From an uncultured Actinomycetota bacterium (GTDB lineage Bacteria > Actinomycetota > Actinomycetes > Propionibacteriales > Propionibacteriaceae), in assembly GCA_963758075.1 (NCBI GenBank), contig CAVWTT010000001.1, positions 76,973-140,972 of the forward strand: a DNA stretch of 64,000 bases, written 5' to 3'. Under the pieces are notes generated by a model. It saw only the letters and a list, made by a program, of their open reading frames with translations. It was not told the origin of the DNA and did no database searches. The position numbers and the translations under genes are program-made. Every line of letters begins with the position of its first letter. The first letter of the stretch is position 1. This document shows, piece by piece, positions 564-19,991 of this stretch.

Positions 564-1004
564 GTGGCCGACAGCACCCAGTCCCGTATCGAGATCCCGG
601 CTCCACCGGAGCAGGTGATGGCGGTGATCACCGACCTGGAGTCCTACCCGGAGTGGGTGGACGCCCTGTCGGCGGTCGAGGTGTTGACCCGGACCGACGG
701 TCACCCGGACACGGTGCGGATGGTGCTGGATCATCCGCTGCTCTCCGACGACTACACCGTCCGCTATCACTGGGGCAGCGACGAGATCAGCTGGCAGCTG
801 CTGTCCGGGCGGACCTTGACCGCGATGGACGGGTCCTACACCGTGCAGCCGTCGGATGCCGGCAGCAGCGTGACCTACCGGCTCACCGTCGATCTGAGAC
901 GCCGACTGCCCGGGCTGATCAAACGCACCGCGGAGAAGGCGATCACCGACACCGCCCTGCAGGGGCTGAGGCGGCGGGTGGTCGCCATCCGGGGCACCCG
1001 CTGA
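564..1004 (+). CDS. SRPBCC (polyketide cyclase/START-like) family protein
   Basis: MADSTQSRIEIPAPPEQVMAVITDLESYPEW signature; GTG at 564 lies 7 nt after a TAGGGT -10 (leaderless start). Confidence 0.85.
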   Translation: MADSTQSRIEIPAPPEQVMAVITDLESYPEWVDALSAVEVLTRTDGHPDTVRMVLDHPLLSDDYTVRYHWGSDEISWQLLSGRTLTAMDGSYTVQPSDAGSSVTYRLTVDLRRRLPGLIKRTAEKAITDTALQGLRRRVVAIRGTR

Positions 1005-2116
1005 TGGCCCGCGCCGCATTGCCTCCGGCAGCGGTGCCGTACAGCATCGGGGTGGACATCGGCGGCACCAAGGTCGCCGCCGGGGTGGTCGACGGGCACG
1101 GCCGGATCGTCGAACGGCTGCTGGCCGCGACGCCGTCGCACAGTCCGCGCGCCGTCGAGGACACCATCACCTCCGTGGTGGAGCAGCTGCGGCGCAACCA
1201 CCGGGTGGAGACCGTCGGCATCGGCGCCGCCGGCTGGGTCGACACCGACCAGGCCGTGGTCCGGTTCTCCCCGCACCTGGCCTGGCGGCAGGAACCGCTG
1301 AAGGCGCGGCTGCAGGAGCGGATCGACCTGCCGCTGATCGTCGACAACGACGCCAACGCCGCGGCCTGGGCCGAGTACCGGTTCGGCGCCGGCCGTGGCG
1401 CATCGGTGATGGTCTGCATCACCCTGGGAACCGGCATCGGCGGCGGACTGGTGCTCAACGGCCAGCTCTTCCGTGGCAGCTACGGAATGGCGGGGGAGTG
1501 GGGCCACATGATCGCCGTCCCCGGCGGTCACCTGTGTGAGTGCGGCAACCGCGGCTGCTGGGAGCAGTACGCCAGCGGCAACGCGCTGGTCCGCGACGCC
1601 CGGGAGCTGGTGCGGTCGGGGTCGCCGGTCGTGCAGGGACTCCTCGACGCCGTCGGCGGCCCGGACCAGATCACCGGCCCGGCGATCACCGACGCCGCCG
1701 TCAACGGTGAATCGCTGGCCCAGGAGTTGCTGGCCGACATCGGCCGCTGGCTGGGCATCGGCATCGCGAACCTGGTGGCCGCCCTGGACCCCGAACTGGT
1801 CGTCATCGGCGGCGGCGTCAGCGCCGCCGGGGACCTGCTGCTCGACCCGACCCGGGAGATGTTCGCCCGCACCCTCACCGGTCGTGGTTTCCGCCCGCAG
1901 GCCCGGATCGAACTGGCCGGCTTCCGCAACGACGCCGGCCTGATCGGCGCCGCGGACCTGGCCAGGCACTCGCTGTTCGAGCCCCCGGGCCGGGTCATCG
2001 GTGGCTTCTGGCCGCGCCGGCGGCGCAGCGCCAAACGCACCCGGACCCGACGCGAACCCGGCACGCTACGCCAGGCCGCCGCCAAACGCGCCCAGCGCAG
2101 GCTCGACAACCCCTGA
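1004..2116 (+). CDS. glk: ROK-family glucokinase
   Basis: IGVDIGGTK, NDANAAAWAEY, GTGIGGG, EWGH and CECGNRGCWE zinc motif; ATG overlaps the upstream TGA. Confidence 0.9.
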   Translation: MARAALPPAAVPYSIGVDIGGTKVAAGVVDGHGRIVERLLAATPSHSPRAVEDTITSVVEQLRRNHRVETVGIGAAGWVDTDQAVVRFSPHLAWRQEPLKARLQERIDLPLIVDNDANAAAWAEYRFGAGRGASVMVCITLGTGIGGGLVLNGQLFRGSYGMAGEWGHMIAVPGGHLCECGNRGCWEQYASGNALVRDARELVRSGSPVVQGLLDAVGGPDQITGPAITDAAVNGESLAQELLADIGRWLGIGIANLVAALDPELVVIGGGVSAAGDLLLDPTREMFARTLTGRGFRPQARIELAGFRNDAGLIGAADLARHSLFEPPGRVIGGFWPRRRRSAKRTRTRREPGTLRQAAAKRAQRRLDNP

Positions 2117-2191
2117 CCGCCTCCCGCGCCCTGAGCCCGCCCAACGCAACGGCGGCGCATTCCGGGCCCCCGAGCTGTGTCGCGTGGGGAG

Positions 2192-4247
2192 TCAGGCCGC
2201 CGGGGATGGCGCGCGGTCGGTCGAGGTCTGCCAGACGGTGTCGGCGAAGGTTCCGGTGCCCAGGTCGTGGGTGCCGGCCGGGTTGGTGACGATGACCCGC
2301 CCGAATCTGGTCCGCCACACGAAGGTGCCCGCGACCGGTTGTGTCACGTTGATCGGGCCGAACGTCTTGTACCGGTGCTCACCCCGCGTCAACGGGCCCA
2401 GATTGTCCAGCCGGGTCTGCCCGGGTGGCCCGTCCGGTGGACCATTGGGCGGTCCGCCCGGTGATGCGCCCGGTGGTGCGCCGGGTGGTGCGCCGGGTGG
2501 GCCGGTGTAGGGCACCGTGTGGTCCAGGTCGAGCCGGTGGCGGCTGGTGGTGCCGGACCAGGGGAACACGCTGGCCGGGGACCGGGCCAGTACGGCCTCG
2601 ACCATCCGGTCAGGTATCTCGTAGCCGTCGGCAGGTGGGATCCGGGCCGGGTCGAGCACCGGCAGGACCCGGACCCGGCAGCCCCGACCGAGCCATTCCC
2701 GCACCGACGCCAGCAGCACGGGGCCGATGTCCTCGACCCGGGCCACGCCCGGATCCTCGCCAGCAGCTGAAGGCCGGCAGGGCGTCGGCGCTGATGTGGA
2801 CGTGCAGAACCACTCTGGGGGTGAGCTTGTCCGGGTCGATGCGTCGGGCCAGGTCCTTCATCACCGCCTCCCGCCGCTCCGCCCGCTCGGCTCAGCCTCC
2901 GGTTGCGGGTCCAGCCCTGGCCGGGGATCCTCGGATCCGGGCTCGGCGGGCATCGGCAGGTCGGGGCCGGGTAGGTCCGAGGCGGGCGGCTCTGTGGGTG
3001 GTCCCGGGTCGAAGTCGGCAAGGTCCGAGGCGGGCGGCTCTACAGGTAGTGCCGGCTCGAAGTCGGCAAGGTCGGAGTCCGAAGGCTCCGACCCCGGACC
3101 TGGATCCGGCAGGTCGCGCATCGGTAGATCGGGCATCGGCCCGGCCGGAATCTGCTGGTCGCGCATCGGCTGGCCGGGCATCGGTAGATCGGGCATCGGC
3201 CCACCCGGAATCTGCTGGTCGCGCATCGGCTGGCCGGGCATCGGCAGATCGGGCATCGGCCCACCCGGAATCTGCCGGCCGCGCATCGGCTGGCCGGGCA
3301 TCGACAGATCGGGCATCGGCCCACCCGGAACCTGCCGGTCGCGCATCGGCTGGCCGGGCATCGGCAGATCGGCCGCCGGCACCCCGGTCGCAGCGGTCCG
3401 GTGGTCCGCCACCTGGAGGTGGGCTTCGAGGTCGGTGAACAGGTCCGGCTGATCCACCTGCGCCAGGACCTGCAGGGCCAGCGCGGGTTGGGCCAGGATC
3501 CCGGCTGCGACCGCCTGCCACTCGGCCGCCGTCCGGGCACCCCGATCCGGGATGCCGGCCGGCAGGTCGTCGGCCCGGCCCATCAGGATGTCGGCGAGCC
3601 GCTTGAGTGGCTGCCTTCAGCAGGATGGCGTCGGGGGTGTCGACCAGCATCGACACCTCGGTCAGCCCGTACTCGCTGCCCTGCCCGGTGCGGATGTAGC
3701 GGAACCGCTTCGCGTTCTCGGTCTCCTGCTCGACCCGGACCCGGTCCACCCGCAGGATCTCGGCAGCCAGCAGGTGCTCCAACCGGGTCCAGGACAGCTG
3801 CCCCACCACCCGCACCACCCGACGATCCACCACCATCGCCTGCTCGACGCTCAGCAGTCGGGTGCGGGCGGCGACCCGGCGGGCATCCCTGGCCGGCACC
3901 TGCCCGGCCTGCACCCGCCCCCACAGCCGCGGCAGCCGGTGCCGCAGATCCAGTGCATCGGCGATCAGCATCCGGGCCTGGCCGGGACTCACACCGATCT
4001 CCACTCCCAACTCGGCGGGGGCGAACTCGGCCACCTCCGGGGTGCCGTCGCCACCGAACCTGGCTGTCTCTTCTCCGGCGATGGCCAGGTCGGTGTAGCG
4101 GTGCAGGATTCCGTCGGCCGGATGGTGGTCGGCCCACAGGGCGGCGAGTTCGAGGAGGCGGCAGCCGGCGGCCCGTTCGGCCCGCACACAGGCGGCTGCG
4201 GCGGCAGCCACCTGATGGCTGTCCCACCGCTCCAACGCCTCTCCCAT
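2192..4247 (-). pseudogene. DUF222 / HNH-endonuclease (13E12-repeat-like) protein, about 684 aa if repaired; split by three single-base frameshifts (near 3607, 2890, 2770)
   Basis: N-terminal EFAPAELGVEIGVSPGQARMLIADALDLRHRLPRLW, middle VVLHVHIS, C-terminal DLDHTVPY...NLGPLTRGEHRYKT; segments lie in alternating frames (+1,-1,+1). Pseudogene versus assembly error unresolved. Confidence 0.8.
3121..3372. repeat. 60-bp tandem repeat x4.2 inside the DUF222 gene (peptide PMPGQPMRDQQIPGGPMPDL); neighbouring 48-bp repeat at about 2973-3077
   Basis: Lines 3121-3360 align as four near-identical 60-mers. Confidence 0.95.
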
Positions 4248-4254
4248 GACCGTC

Positions 4255-4276
4255 ACGCTAGACGGGAGCACTGACA
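4255..4276 (-). promoter_or_regulatory. PafBC-type (RecA-NDp) DNA-damage promoter, leaderless, for the DUF222/HNH gene
   Basis: Minus strand TGTCAG-N10-TA-GCG-T, then 7 nt to ATG at 4247; matches TGTC[AG]G-N10-TANNNT. Confidence 0.8.
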
Positions 4277-4477
4277 AAACAGCCCTCCTGCCGTCGCGAT
4301 CGAGGACCCCGTGAAGGGCGTCCCTGGTCCGGGACGTGCTGCCATCCTCGGACTCGCCGTCACCCGCCGCCGGACCAGGTGAAACCGACAGATGCCCAGG
4401 CTCGGGCGCGCCCTCCGACGAGCTCAGGACGCGGGTCGGTCGGCGACCCTTCGACAGGCAGAACGCGGATCGGACGA

Positions 4478-4984
4478 TCAGAGCACAGCGCCGTCACCGG
4501 AGTCGGGGGGACGTCGACGGGGCAGGCGGCTGAGCAGGATGCCGAAGCCGATGGCGAAGGCCAGCACCGCAAGCCATCCCGCCCAGGTGGGCAGGCCGAC
4601 CCCGAAGGCGGCCAGCAGCATGATCACGACCGCGATGGTGATCCCGGTCCAGCCGAGCAGCACGGGCACCGACGGCCGGGGCCACCCCACCGGTGGTGGG
4701 GTATAGCGCTCCTCCCGGTCCACCGGAGGCGGTGCGGGCTGCCGGGTCGGCGGCAGGGCCGCCGGATCGGTACCGAGGACGTCGCGGACGAGGTCGGCAA
4801 CGCTCCGGTCGCCGAGTACCGGGCCCTCGTCGGGATGATCGCGGCTGTCCCCGCCGGCGTCCGCCGCCGTGTCCCGGCCCTGCACCGGGCCGTCGGCCCA
4901 GTGCGCGATCAGGTCGGCGAAGGCGCGGTCGATCACGTCCTGGTCGTCGAACCGGTCGTCGGAGCCGGGTTCCCGGTCGGTCAT
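4478..4984 (-). CDS. Hypothetical membrane protein
   Basis: Acidic N-terminus (DVIDRAFADLIAHW), two C-terminal hydrophobic segments; 3 nt downstream of the hydrolase stop. Confidence 0.7.
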   Translation of the reverse strand: MTDREPGSDDRFDDQDVIDRAFADLIAHWADGPVQGRDTAADAGGDSRDHPDEGPVLGDRSVADLVRDVLGTDPAALPPTRQPAPPPVDREERYTPPPVGWPRPSVPVLLGWTGITIAVVIMLLAAFGVGLPTWAGWLAVLAFAIGFGILLSRLPRRRPPDSGDGAVL

Positions 4985-16550: not shown

Positions 16551-17734
16551 TGGTCAGCGTCACCCTGCTCGACGAGCGCGGCCGTACCCGCCGGCACGAG
16601 CTGCCGGCGGCCGCCCCGCTGCAGCGACCGGCCGGCCGGTTCGCCAGCCGGGTCGCCTATGCCGCCGCCCACGTCGTCCCGCATGCCTGGGCCGACAACG
16701 TGCCCGGGGCACCGGCCGACATCGACTGGGAGGCCACCCTCGGCTTCCGCCGACACCTGTGGTCGTGGGGACTCGGTGTCGCCGATGCGATGGACACCGC
16801 GCAGCGGAACATGGGGCTGGACGCTGTCGCCACCCGTGAACTGATCGCGCGGACCGCCGCCGAGGCGAAGGCCTGCTCCGGTTTCGACGACCCGGCCGAC
16901 GCGGTGGTGGTCGGGGTCAACACCGACCAGCTCGACCAGCCGGCGGTCGGTCTGGACCAGGTGGTGGCCGGCTACCTGGAGCAGTTGCACTTCGCCCAGT
17001 CCCAGGGTGTCGGAGTGGTCTTGATGGCCAGCCGTCACCTGGCCCGCGCCGCCGGGTCGGCGCAGGACTACGTCGATGTCTACCGCCGCGTGCTGGCCGA
17101 AGCAGACCGGCCGGTGATCCTGCACTGGCTCGGCGAGGCATTCGACCCACAGCTGGCCGCCTATTTCGGTAGCAGCGACGTGGCCGAGTCGAGCCGGACC
17201 GTGCTGCAGATCATCGGTGAGCACACCGAGGTGGTGCGCGGCATCAAGATGAGCCTGCTGGACGCCGACGCCGAGATCGCGCTGCGTGACCAATTGCCCC
17301 CGGGCGTGCGGATGTTCACCGGCGACGACTACAACTACGTCGGTCTGATCGCCGGCGACGACCACCGCCATTCCGATGCGCTGCTGGGCGCCTTCGCAGC
17401 CGTCGGCCCGAGCGCCTCGGTGGCCATCCACGCCCTTGACGCCGGCGATCCCGGCCGCTACCGGGCCGTGCTCGGCCCGACCGAGCCGCTGGCCCGGCAG
17501 ATCTTCGCCGCACCGACCTTCTACTACAAGACCGGTGTCGCCTTCCTGTCCTGGCTGAACGGCCACCAGCCGGCGTTCGCCATGGTCGGGGGTCTGCACA
17601 GCGCCCGCAGCCTGCCGCATCTGTCCCGGATCGTCCGGCTGGCGGGGGAAGCCAACGCGCTGACCGATCCGGAACTGGCCGCGGCGCGGTGGCACGCGAT
17701 GCTGGCCCTGCACGGGATCGAGACGAACCGATGA
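16550..17734 (+). CDS. DUF993 (dihydrodipicolinate-synthase-like aldolase fold) protein
   Basis: RVAYAAAHVV, AMDTAQR, ILHWLG, IKMSLLD, FTGDDYNY, YYKTG. Confidence 0.85.
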   Translation: MVSVTLLDERGRTRRHELPAAAPLQRPAGRFASRVAYAAAHVVPHAWADNVPGAPADIDWEATLGFRRHLWSWGLGVADAMDTAQRNMGLDAVATRELIARTAAEAKACSGFDDPADAVVVGVNTDQLDQPAVGLDQVVAGYLEQLHFAQSQGVGVVLMASRHLARAAGSAQDYVDVYRRVLAEADRPVILHWLGEAFDPQLAAYFGSSDVAESSRTVLQIIGEHTEVVRGIKMSLLDADAEIALRDQLPPGVRMFTGDDYNYVGLIAGDDHRHSDALLGAFAAVGPSASVAIHALDAGDPGRYRAVLGPTEPLARQIFAAPTFYYKTGVAFLSWLNGHQPAFAMVGGLHSARSLPHLSRIVRLAGEANALTDPELAAARWHAMLALHGIETNR

Positions 17735-18573
17735 GCCACGGACGGTTCTCCCTCAACCAGGCCACCATCAAGTACGCCTCGCTGGCCGAGGCGCTGCAGG
17801 TGTGCGTCGACGCCGGGTACGAGTCGATCGGGCTGTGGCGCGAACCCGTCGCCGAGGTCGGCCTGGACAAGGCCGCCGCGCTGGTGGCCGACTCCGGGCT
17901 GCGGGTATCCAGTCTGTGCCGGGGCGGCTTCTTCACCGCGCCGCCCGGGCCGCAACGCCGGCAGGCGCTGGAGGACAACCGGCAGGCGCTGGCCGAGGCG
18001 CATCGACTGGGAACCGACACCCTGGTGTTGGTGGCCGGCGGGCTGCCGGTCGGGGACCGGGACCTGGCCGGCGCGCGGGAACGGGTCCGGGATGCCATCG
18101 GTGAACTCGCCGACGACGCCCTGGCCGCCGGCGTCAGGCTGGCGATCGAACCGCTGCACCCGATGTATGCCGCCGACCGCGCGGTGGTCAACACGCTGGC
18201 GCAGGCCCTGGACATCGCCGAGCAGTTCCCCGCCGAGGTCGCCGGTGTCGTCGTCGACACCTACCACCTCTGGTGGGACCCGCAGGTGCTGGCCCAGATC
18301 GCCCGAGCCGGTCGGCAGCGGATCACCAGCTACCAGGTCTGTGACTGGATCACCCCACTACCCGCCGACGTGCTGCTGGCCCGCGGCATCCCCGGCGACG
18401 GGCACATCGACTTCGGCGCCTTGACCCGCGCCGTCGCCGCGACCGGCTATGCCGGCGACATCGAGGTGGAGATCTTCCACGCCGACGTCTGGAACCGCCC
18501 CTACGCCGAGATCGCCACCCTGGTCGCCGACCGCTACCACCAGCTGGTCGAACCCCACCTGACCACCCGCTGA
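17731..18573 (+). CDS. Sugar phosphate isomerase/epimerase (xylose-isomerase-like TIM barrel)
   Basis: SLNQAT, SSLCRGG, AIEPLHP, DTYH, QVCDW, GDGHID, EVEIF. Confidence 0.88.
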   Translation: MSHGRFSLNQATIKYASLAEALQVCVDAGYESIGLWREPVAEVGLDKAAALVADSGLRVSSLCRGGFFTAPPGPQRRQALEDNRQALAEAHRLGTDTLVLVAGGLPVGDRDLAGARERVRDAIGELADDALAAGVRLAIEPLHPMYAADRAVVNTLAQALDIAEQFPAEVAGVVVDTYHLWWDPQVLAQIARAGRQRITSYQVCDWITPLPADVLLARGIPGDGHIDFGALTRAVAATGYAGDIEVEIFHADVWNRPYAEIATLVADRYHQLVEPHLTTR

Positions 18574-18634
18574 CCCCCGTCGAACAGCGCCGACCGACCC
18601 GCGTCCTGAGCTCGAAGGGGACCCCGGGGACAGC

Positions 18635-18814
18635 CCTCGATCACGACGGTACGGGGGCTGTTTTGTCAGTGTTCCCGTACGTGTGGCGGACCGGGTTCGG
18701 GCGGGTGATCGTCACCAACCCGGCCGGCACCCACGACCTCGGCACCGGAACCTTCGCCGACACCGTCTGGCAGACCTCGGCCGACCGCGCGCCATCCCCG
18801 GCGGCCTGACTCCC
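18635..18814 (+). mobile_element. Miniature internally deleted derivative of the DUF222/HNH element (5' flank fused to the 3' end)
   Basis: 18635-18678 matches reverse complement of 4262-4305 at 39/44; 18680-18814 matches reverse complement of 2187-2321 at 130/135. Homology is seen directly; mobility is inferred. Confidence 0.7.
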
Positions 18815-18857
18815 GAAGCCGACATCACCGGCCGCAAGGGGTGCGCCGGGCTTGGGG

Positions 18858-19991
18858 TCAGAAGGTGCGCCGGACCGCTGCGGCGGCCAGCGCGGTGAGC
18901 GCAGCGCGCCCGTCGGTGGTGATGTCGGCCCGGTCCAGCTCGGCCAGCGCCTGTTGGTGATCGTGTTCGATCATCTGCTCGACCGCCTGCCGGGCCCCGG
19001 AGCTGGTGATCACCTCCTGCAGGGCGTCGACACCGGCGGCGTCGAGGTCGGTGTCACCGAGCCGGTCCTCCAGCAGCTTCCGCCCGGTGGCGTCGGCCCG
19101 GGCGAGCGCCTGCGCGACCAGTACGGTGCGCTTGCCCTCCCGTAGATCGTCCCCGGACGGCTTGCCGGTGACCTGGCTGTCGCCGAAGACACCGAGCAGG
19201 TCGTCGCGGTACTGGAAGGCACGGCCCAGGGGCGACCCGAAAGCGGCCAGCCGATCCTGCAACCGGTGGTCCGCGCCGCCCAGGGCGGCGCCGAACTCGA
19301 CCGGACGGCGGACCGTGTACCGGGCCGACTTGTACTCCACCACCCGCTCGGCCTCCTGCAGCGCCCGCTGCAACCGCCCGGTGGGATCGGCGTCCTCGTC
19401 GGGCCGGTAGTCGCGGCGATCGCGGACCTGGGCGACCAGGTCGAGGAACTGCCCGGCCATCACCTCGGTCCGCATCCGCTCCATGATCGGCAGCGCCCGA
19501 TCCAGCATCGCCGGGGCCAACCCGCACCGTTGCAGCATCTCCGCCGACCAGATCAGCAGCAGGTCACCGAGCAGGATCGCGCCGGCCCGGCCGAACCCGA
19601 GCCCGTCCCCGAGCCAGCCCAGGTCGGCGTGCAGCCGTTCGAACCGGCGATGGGCCGCCGGCACCCCGCGGCGCAGATCGGAGCCATCCATCACGTCGTC
19701 GTGCACCAGCGCACTGACATGCAAGAGGTCCAGGCTGGCCGCGGCCCGGATCAGGGCCGGCCGGACCGGGCCCGGGTCGCCGGCCGCGGCGACGTAACCC
19801 CAGTAACAGAACGCCGGCCGCAACCGCTTGCCGCCGGCCGCCAGGTCGCCGGCCATCCGCCGCACCGGCCCCAGTTCGGCACCCATCGGTGCCAGCACGT
19901 CGGCCTGTCCGGCCAGAAAGGCCGCGATCGCCTCGGAGACCGCGTCGGTGAACGGGCTGCCCAGCGGCGCGGTCGGATCCGGTGGTGTCAC
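18858..19991 (-). CDS. idsA: Polyprenyl diphosphate synthase (GGPP synthase, IdsA/CrtE-like)
   Basis: GGKRLRP, HDDVMD (FARM), YKSARYT, FQYRDDLLG (SARM), DDLREGK. Confidence 0.9.
   Translation of the reverse strand: MTPPDPTAPLGSPFTDAVSEAIAAFLAGQADVLAPMGAELGPVRRMAGDLAAGGKRLRPAFCYWGYVAAAGDPGPVRPALIRAAASLDLLHVSALVHDDVMDGSDLRRGVPAAHRRFERLHADLGWLGDGLGFGRAGAILLGDLLLIWSAEMLQRCGLAPAMLDRALPIMERMRTEVMAGQFLDLVAQVRDRRDYRPDEDADPTGRLQRALQEAERVVEYKSARYTVRRPVEFGAALGGADHRLQDRLAAFGSPLGRAFQYRDDLLGVFGDSQVTGKPSGDDLREGKRTVLVAQALARADATGRKLLEDRLGDTDLDAAGVDALQEVITSSGARQAVEQMIEHDHQQALAELDRADITTDGRAALTALAAAAVRRTF

Follow-up and report, generated by a model that had tools for sequence, protein, structure and literature searches.

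Between two convergent open reading frames (ORFs) at 17689..18573 (+) and 18858..19991 (−) of the 64,000-nt stretch of DNA analysed here, hereafter the window, lies a short sequence that joins the upstream flank of a DUF222 gene to the 3′ end of the same kind of gene. A reading made from the sequence alone had placed it at 18635–18814 and taken it for a MITE-like miniature of a DUF222/HNH element, with two retained ends that would define the cis-acting termini of a mobile class. The locus therefore raises the question of whether it is a non-autonomous element in its own right or what is left of a full-length member of the family. We find that it is an ordinary internally deleted leftover rather than a MITE: 18576–18836 is, with high probability, a dead relic left when one copy of a DUF222 repeat of the REP13E12 type, which has 15 full copies in the genome, lost its middle by a single deletion.

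Anatomy of the relic

We compared 18560–18860 with the whole 3.83-Mb assembly (5 contigs, C1–C5) by BLASTN and read both regions of the window directly. Both halves of the sequence-only description were reproduced. Positions 18635–18678 are the reverse complement of 4262–4305, in the upstream flank of the window's full DUF222 gene (39/44, E 6e-9 genome-wide), and 18680–18823 are the reverse complement of ~2178–2321, the last 42 codons of that gene plus flank (94.5%, E 7e-59 genome-wide). About 1.9 kb of interior sequence is missing between them, and the convergent intergenic setting is as had been described.

The 5′ segment (18635..18678, +) is the promoter-proximal part of the unit and keeps the −26 element of a PafBC-type promoter, TGTCAG, at 18664–18669 (motif from PMC8635444); the −10 hexamer did not survive at the junction, where CGTGTG stands in place of the TAGCGT of full copies, and here too the earlier description holds. 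The junction consists of a single A (18679..18679, +) that fits neither parental side. The parental sequences at this point are ...CCCGTctagCGTGgtgg on the 5′ side and ...ccttCGTGTGGCGG on the 3′ side, and because CGT/CGTG is present in both, the junction sits in a CGT(G) microhomology, as proposed. Beyond it, the 3′ segment (18680..18809, +) holds the last 42 codons and the stop codon (TGA, 18807–18809) of the DUF222 ORF at 94–98% identity to full copies. This ORF remnant has neither start codon nor promoter and is followed by ~27 nt of family-conserved tail (GACTCCCGAAGCCGACATCACCGGCC, 18810..18836, +).

The matches within 18635–18814 thus stand, but the homology is wider on both sides, at ~18576–18836. 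Upstream, a leader remnant at 18576..18617 (+) consists of a REP doublet, in which the spacer gaccgacc separates the end of one REP from the beginning of another; BLASTN aligns 18576–18614 with the reverse complement of 4458–4419 (36/40), and the sole other genomic match of this doublet, at C1:288278, is also upstream of a DUF222 fragment. A REP-like hairpin at 18599..18624 (+), cgcgtcctgagctc-gaaggggac, is a member of the family GCGCCCT-GAGCTCGTCGA-AGGGCGC. Downstream, the homology runs to ~18836 when copies other than the window's own are compared; the earlier limit at 18814 arose because the tail of the window's own copy has diverged. Altogether, unit-derived sequence covers ~260 of the 284 bp between the stop codons of the convergent neighbours.

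The relic does not have the window's full copy as its parent, since 15 full copies exist and others are closer: the 3′ block is nearest to copies C2b, C5b and C5c (97.7–98.5%, versus 95.5% for the window copy). Like the class-1 copies, the relic also lacks the ~105-nt leader segment (4306–4415) of the window copy. It carries 3 private substitutions in 159 nt, including some in the leader, compared with 0–5 in full copies, and its identity to the full copies is about the same as their identity to each other. The relic is therefore either young or has been kept similar by conversion, and because the copies are thoroughly mosaic (see below), its age is unreadable from identity or private substitutions.

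The DUF222 family of the genome

The whole-genome BLASTN proposed as a check found 15 full copies at 85–95% nucleotide identity (five each on C2 and C5, three on C1 and one each on C3 and C4), and one additional DUF222 paralogue stands at 67%; a search with all 15 units added four further relics, which are described below. Homology between units begins 45–190 nt upstream of the promoter box, a 5′ limit that varies from copy to copy, and ends ~30 nt past the stop codon. A complete unit is made up of a leader with REPs, the leaderless promoter of PafBC type, 1.6–2.0 kb of ORF and a tail of ~30 nt. The window's own full-length unit (2117..4477, −) is frameshifted and fills the gap between 653..2116 (+) and 4478..4984 (−); on the minus strand it has a REP doublet at 4458–4407, a class-2 leader at 4306–4415, a PafBC box at 4276–4255, an ATG at 4247–4245, a stop codon at 2194–2192 and a tail with a degenerate inverted REP at 2191–2125.

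Exchange between copies is extensive. For nearly all copies, the nearest neighbour in one block is not the nearest in the next, and identity in one block does not correlate with that in another (r −0.10 to 0.20). The four-gamete test fails for 64% of informative site pairs. The copies are thus mosaics that point to pervasive gene conversion.

Several further features vary among the copies. The ~105-nt leader insert between REP and promoter (4306–4415, − strand), with a 10-bp stem formed by CCTGGTCCGG...CCGGACCAGG, is common to 5/15 copies and also occurs solo, with a decayed promoter, at C1:783894–784018; it may represent either a small element of its own or a structured leader. Tandem repeats of 60 nt (4.4 copies, 94% matches) and 48 nt at 3107–3372 and 2973–3077 encode a Pro-rich linker of the PMPDLPMPGQPMRDQQIPGG type in the minus-strand ORF, and the number of these repeats differs among paralogues and produces most of the variation in ORF length (~530–650 codons in intact copies). 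A 12-nt repeat at 2451–2500 lies within the HNH-like motif. Outside the units, at C5:867.6 kb and C5:1369.4 kb, a 24-nt sequence (ccattcacccggtcgcggggtcga) is repeated in tandem at least 7 times immediately beyond the 3′ side of copy C5d, and a run of ~16 C lies downstream of copy C5a. The 3′ flanks of C4a, C1c and C2e share 184–334 nt of extra homology (90–95%) past the unit (contig C4, of 14.6 kb; C2:1109950; C1:10134), which probably reflects a repeat of larger size or, alternatively, a break of the assembly in repeats.

The promoter recurs across the family. Full copies carry TGTCAG-N10-TAGCGT 7 nt upstream of the ATG, which fits the PafBC (RecA-NDp) promoter motif tGTCgg(N10)tA(N3)T (PMC8635444). 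To widen the comparison beyond this genome, we drew on 80 related loci (L025–L104) obtained by a profile scan with one genome per species and covering Propionibacteriaceae, including Microlunatus, Nocardioidaceae and soil metagenome-assembled genomes; a scan of genome contigs with a single protein had found no relative. GTC[AG]G-N10-TANNNT lies 6–8 nt ahead of the ATG or GTG in 57/80 of these loci and in 0/80 control regions, which makes a PafBC-type leaderless promoter a trait of the family in Propionibacteriaceae and Nocardioidaceae. Going by this motif, the DUF222 promoter is presumably induced by DNA damage. Such a family promoter fits the mitomycin induction reported for putative HNH endonucleases of Mycobacterium tuberculosis (PMC8151990). 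The same promoter pattern gave 0 matches in a scan of metagenome contigs.

REP hairpins accompany the units. The repeat GCGCCCT-GAGCTCGTCGA-AGGGCGC has 66 genomic matches at up to 2 mismatches, versus 3 for a reversed control, and 136 by nhmmer at E≤1. A REP lies within 250 bp upstream in 8/16 DUF222 loci, always on the gene's strand, and downstream in 6/16, mostly on the opposite strand, against a genome-wide expectation of ~0.14 per side; these counts are not independent, because paralogues share parts of the leader. Across the 80 Propionibacteriales loci of other genomes, upstream regions have 1.2 REPs per kb (23 in the orientation of the gene, 5 opposite) and downstream regions 1.0 per kb (8 and 15, respectively), compared with 0.21 per kb in the far flanks. 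This is an enrichment of ~5-fold, which is smaller relative to intergenic DNA, since the far flanks are mostly coding. As in REP/BIME and REP–RAYT (REPIN) systems, a short GC-rich hairpin (~136 copies) occupies intergenic gaps, is enriched beside one gene family and is biased in orientation. In contrast to REP–RAYT, the DUF222 partner occurs in many copies and does not belong to the HUH/Y1 transposases, and a REP flanks only about half of these copies. On these distributions, the relation between REP and DUF222 reads as an association. In the relative L024, the linker reads ...WPEPVEGRD..., a translated REP-like sequence, and REP units may thus occur inside the variable DUF222 linker as well.

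The protein is recognised by Pfam only as DUF222 (PF02720): the 642-aa product of the intact paralogue C5a reaches 39.1 bits, where the cut-off is 24.4 (E 7.4e-10). The HNH label of the sequence-only reading found no such backing. Pfam gave no HNH match to the C-terminus at E≤10, and 63 subfamily members yielded a single weak HNH_4 match (E 0.16). Foldseek of the C-terminal model against the PDB gave nothing at E≤0.001, a profile search of PDB sequences with the C-terminus gave nothing, and NCBIfam was likewise negative. The four zinc cysteines are replaced (FPWSGTTSR...PLTRGEHRYK), and D75-H76 and H124 (numbering of the C-terminal fragment) are conserved. An AlphaFold2 model built on a 63-sequence alignment (pLDDT 75.9) places strands at 73–76 (DLDH) and 116–119, with a Pro/Gly-rich disordered insert between them, and a helix at 121–129 (EHRYKT); this predicted strand–strand–helix order matches expectation for a ββα-Me core. 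The HNH label of the C-terminus is accordingly putative.

Insertion of the family and origin of the relic

Several lines of evidence bear on the suggestion that DUF222 genes are a mobile class. First, the site of the window's full copy is empty in sister species, as an earlier proposal to look at 2117–4477 had anticipated. The genes on either side are syntenic, with no DUF222 between them, in 20 same-genus species, and in 8/8 retrieved same-genus sites, each from a different sister species, the orthologues of 653..2116 and 4478..4984 are adjacent. The intervening gap, measurable in 7 of the 8, is 16–21 bp (n = 4), 161 bp (n = 2) or 252 bp (n = 1), versus 2361 bp here; this is an interspecies comparison at one of the 15 copies. 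In L011, the same-genus species with the 252-bp gap, that gap is an array of alternating REP hairpins and holds no DUF222 gene. Second, relatives carry from 0 to ~13 DUF222 genes each, of subfamilies with at most 53% protein identity to the present one. Third, nucleotide homology between paralogues ends 0–400 bp from the ORF in most multi-copy genomes among the 80 loci, with one genome in which it reaches ~0.5–1.6 kb past the ORF. Boundaries close to the gene, an empty site and lineage-specific copy numbers typify a selfish gene cassette that is complete in itself, and they support a view of DUF222 units as inserted, lineage-specific selfish DNA. The part of the mobile-class proposal that assigned cis-acting ends to them was not supported.

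Free-standing, nuclease-like and present or absent at otherwise conserved sites, the units resemble homing-endonuclease genes, as they do in their many frameshifted or truncated copies and deletion relics; in the Goddard and Burt model, such genes are said to pass through a cycle of invasion, fixation, degeneration and loss. The DUF222 copies differ from them in being scattered over many unrelated intergenic sites instead of occupying a single cognate target, and both their nuclease activity and a target sequence are putative.

Against this background, the proposal that the relic is a MITE-like non-autonomous element, which keeps the cis-acting ends of the DUF222/HNH element and is moved in trans by intact copies, has some appeal. 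Like MITEs and other internally deleted derivatives of insertion sequences or transposons, the relic comes from a longer coding unit, has undergone an internal deletion and retains both ends; the family looks inserted and lineage-specific, intact and probably inducible copies are present in the same genome, and a second relic, at C1:814.5k, also retains the 3′ tail. We nevertheless consider this reading highly improbable. MITEs are amplified, whereas the relic is a single copy: searches with BLASTN and with all 15 units found no second occurrence of its junction in the 3.83-Mb genome, and a degenerate pattern of the junction gave 0 matches in metagenome contigs.

The other relics argue in the same direction. 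Searching the genome with all 15 units revealed four, each of a different shape: C1:288278–288621 retains the first 280 nt together with the promoter and the REP doublet, hence the 5′ end only; C1:783894–784018 has only leader sequence, a class-2 leader with a decayed promoter; C2:638930–639035 is an internal piece; and C1:814508–814679 has 174 nt of internal sequence, joined 12 nt on to the stop codon and a 32-nt tail. These siblings thus hold one end or none. With five relics of differing shapes, retention of both ends is not a recurrent pattern, and keeping exactly the two ends, which had been read as the signature of an element, is what any single internal deletion does.

The ends themselves carry no distinguishing mark. 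Leaving aside the Pro-rich linker with its many indels, pairwise identity is flat at 91–97% along the unit; the ends are thus no better conserved than the remainder and are not set apart as cis-acting sequences by their retention in the relic. When the upstream flank was aligned with the reverse complement of the downstream flank at 16 loci, all shuffles were exceeded at only 2, the relic not among them; inverted matches at the flanks are short and REP-based. No direct repeat was seen bracketing the unit-derived stretch of the relic. This agrees with the earlier remark that neither terminal inverted repeats nor a target duplication were seen. The missing inverted repeats set the relic apart from MITEs, and so does the lack of a recognisable transposase partner, as the DUF222 protein contains no transposase-type domain (Pfam finds DUF222 alone, NCBIfam nothing).

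Three neighbouring ideas were rejected. Flanking REPs are not a defined terminal inverted repeat: their enrichment is real, but the per-copy inverted alignments do not beat shuffles. A search for parS-like palindromes of at least 14 nt found none that was unit-specific and none in the relic. The full copy and the relic do not bracket the accessory cluster as a composite element, since gene order is shared with relatives beyond the full copy, at least as far as 7400.

It is very improbable that the relic has been co-opted, with the −26 element and REP hairpin serving as a PafBC decoy or as an element that acts on the transcription or mRNA stability of the convergent genes. Both TGTCAG and the hairpin have been kept, and the 3′ ends of genes are a common location of REPs in enterobacterial REP/BIME systems. 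However, folding of the relic gives no signal above shuffles on either strand (z 0.01 and 0.36), no promoter or terminator consensus was found in it and it matches no Rfam family; together, these results also give no signal of an RNA gene or terminator. Moreover, the site has no orthologue in relatives through which conservation could be demonstrated. The relic's flanking genes are adjacent in 0/30 relatives, where the neighbour of the polyprenyl synthase gene varies, so that the proposed search for an empty site at this locus, productive at the full copy, came to nothing; an exact-protein look-up of the flanking gene gave no match.

Least probable of all is an assembly artefact, in which a full copy at this site was collapsed among 15 near-identical repeats: the genome is in 5 contigs, the 14.6-kb contig ends near a DUF222 copy and several copies have frameshifts that are possibly sequencing errors, but a junction at microhomology with one extra base, private substitutions that extend into the leader, the precise internal removal of 1.9 kb between unique flanks, which is not usual for repeat collapse, and real relics of other shapes elsewhere in the genome all speak against it.

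The dead relic of a full unit accounts for these observations, and its derivation by internal deletion, also proposed by the sequence-only reading, is borne out by the homology and the junction. For the order of events, we infer that a full unit once filled the convergent gap between 17689..18573 and 18858..19991 and then lost everything between the −10 hexamer and codon −42. The loss would have been a single deletion between short CGT(G) repeats, which may have occurred either in place, by replication slippage or end joining, or during copying, as abortive gap repair. The 135-nt 3′ block of the relic could still swap sequence with full copies through gene conversion. Beyond that possible role, the relic, which is unamplified and lacks a −10 hexamer and a start codon, most likely does nothing.

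Kinship with REP13E12 and wider meaning

The closest known system is REP13E12 of M. tuberculosis, the ‘13E12 repeat family’ (DUF222-HNH; Gordon et al. 1999, as cited in PMC10589994). Both are dispersed, multi-copy, single-gene units with a DUF222 domain; both exchange sequence between copies by gene conversion, REP13E12 being a gene-conversion hotspot in M. tuberculosis (PMC13061034); and, as a third parallel, the present units carry a DNA-damage-type promoter and putative HNH endonucleases of M. tuberculosis are induced by mitomycin (PMC8151990). The present family differs in a C-terminal domain from which the four zinc cysteines have been lost and which neither Pfam nor Foldseek identifies as HNH, in a long and variable Pro-rich tandem-repeat linker, and in its 15 copies in a 3.8-Mb Propionibacteriaceae genome with REP-like hairpins at the flanks; the role of REP13E12 as a phage attB is not known for the DUF222 units here. 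The family is thus a Cys-less, REP-associated Propionibacteriaceae subfamily. To our knowledge, neither a function nor a mechanism of spread has been defined for REP13E12/DUF222 repeats since 1999.

One speculative scheme, which we regard as unlikely, would join these features. DUF222 genes would be autonomous, PafBC-induced selfish genes with a Cys-less HNH-like nuclease that breaks REP-type hairpins in intergenic gaps, after which repair would copy the unit in, with flanking REPs and unit ends supplying short homology for recombination. Relics with internal deletions, 18576–18836 among them, would arise when gap repair aborts at microhomology, and the relic would then mark minimal homology arms rather than transposase-binding ends.

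Taken alone, 18576–18836 is an ordinary pseudogene relic, and it does not supply a link between the spread of the units and DNA damage or REP targets. The family around it is of moderate interest. This genome is a clean case in several respects: the family has recently burst to 15 copies, one site is empty in other species, gene conversion is pervasive, the PafBC-type leaderless promoter is conserved, REPs are enriched at the flanks and the putative nuclease domain is without its zinc site. If the spread of such units were tied to DNA-damage induction and REP targets, it would explain a very large actinobacterial gene family.
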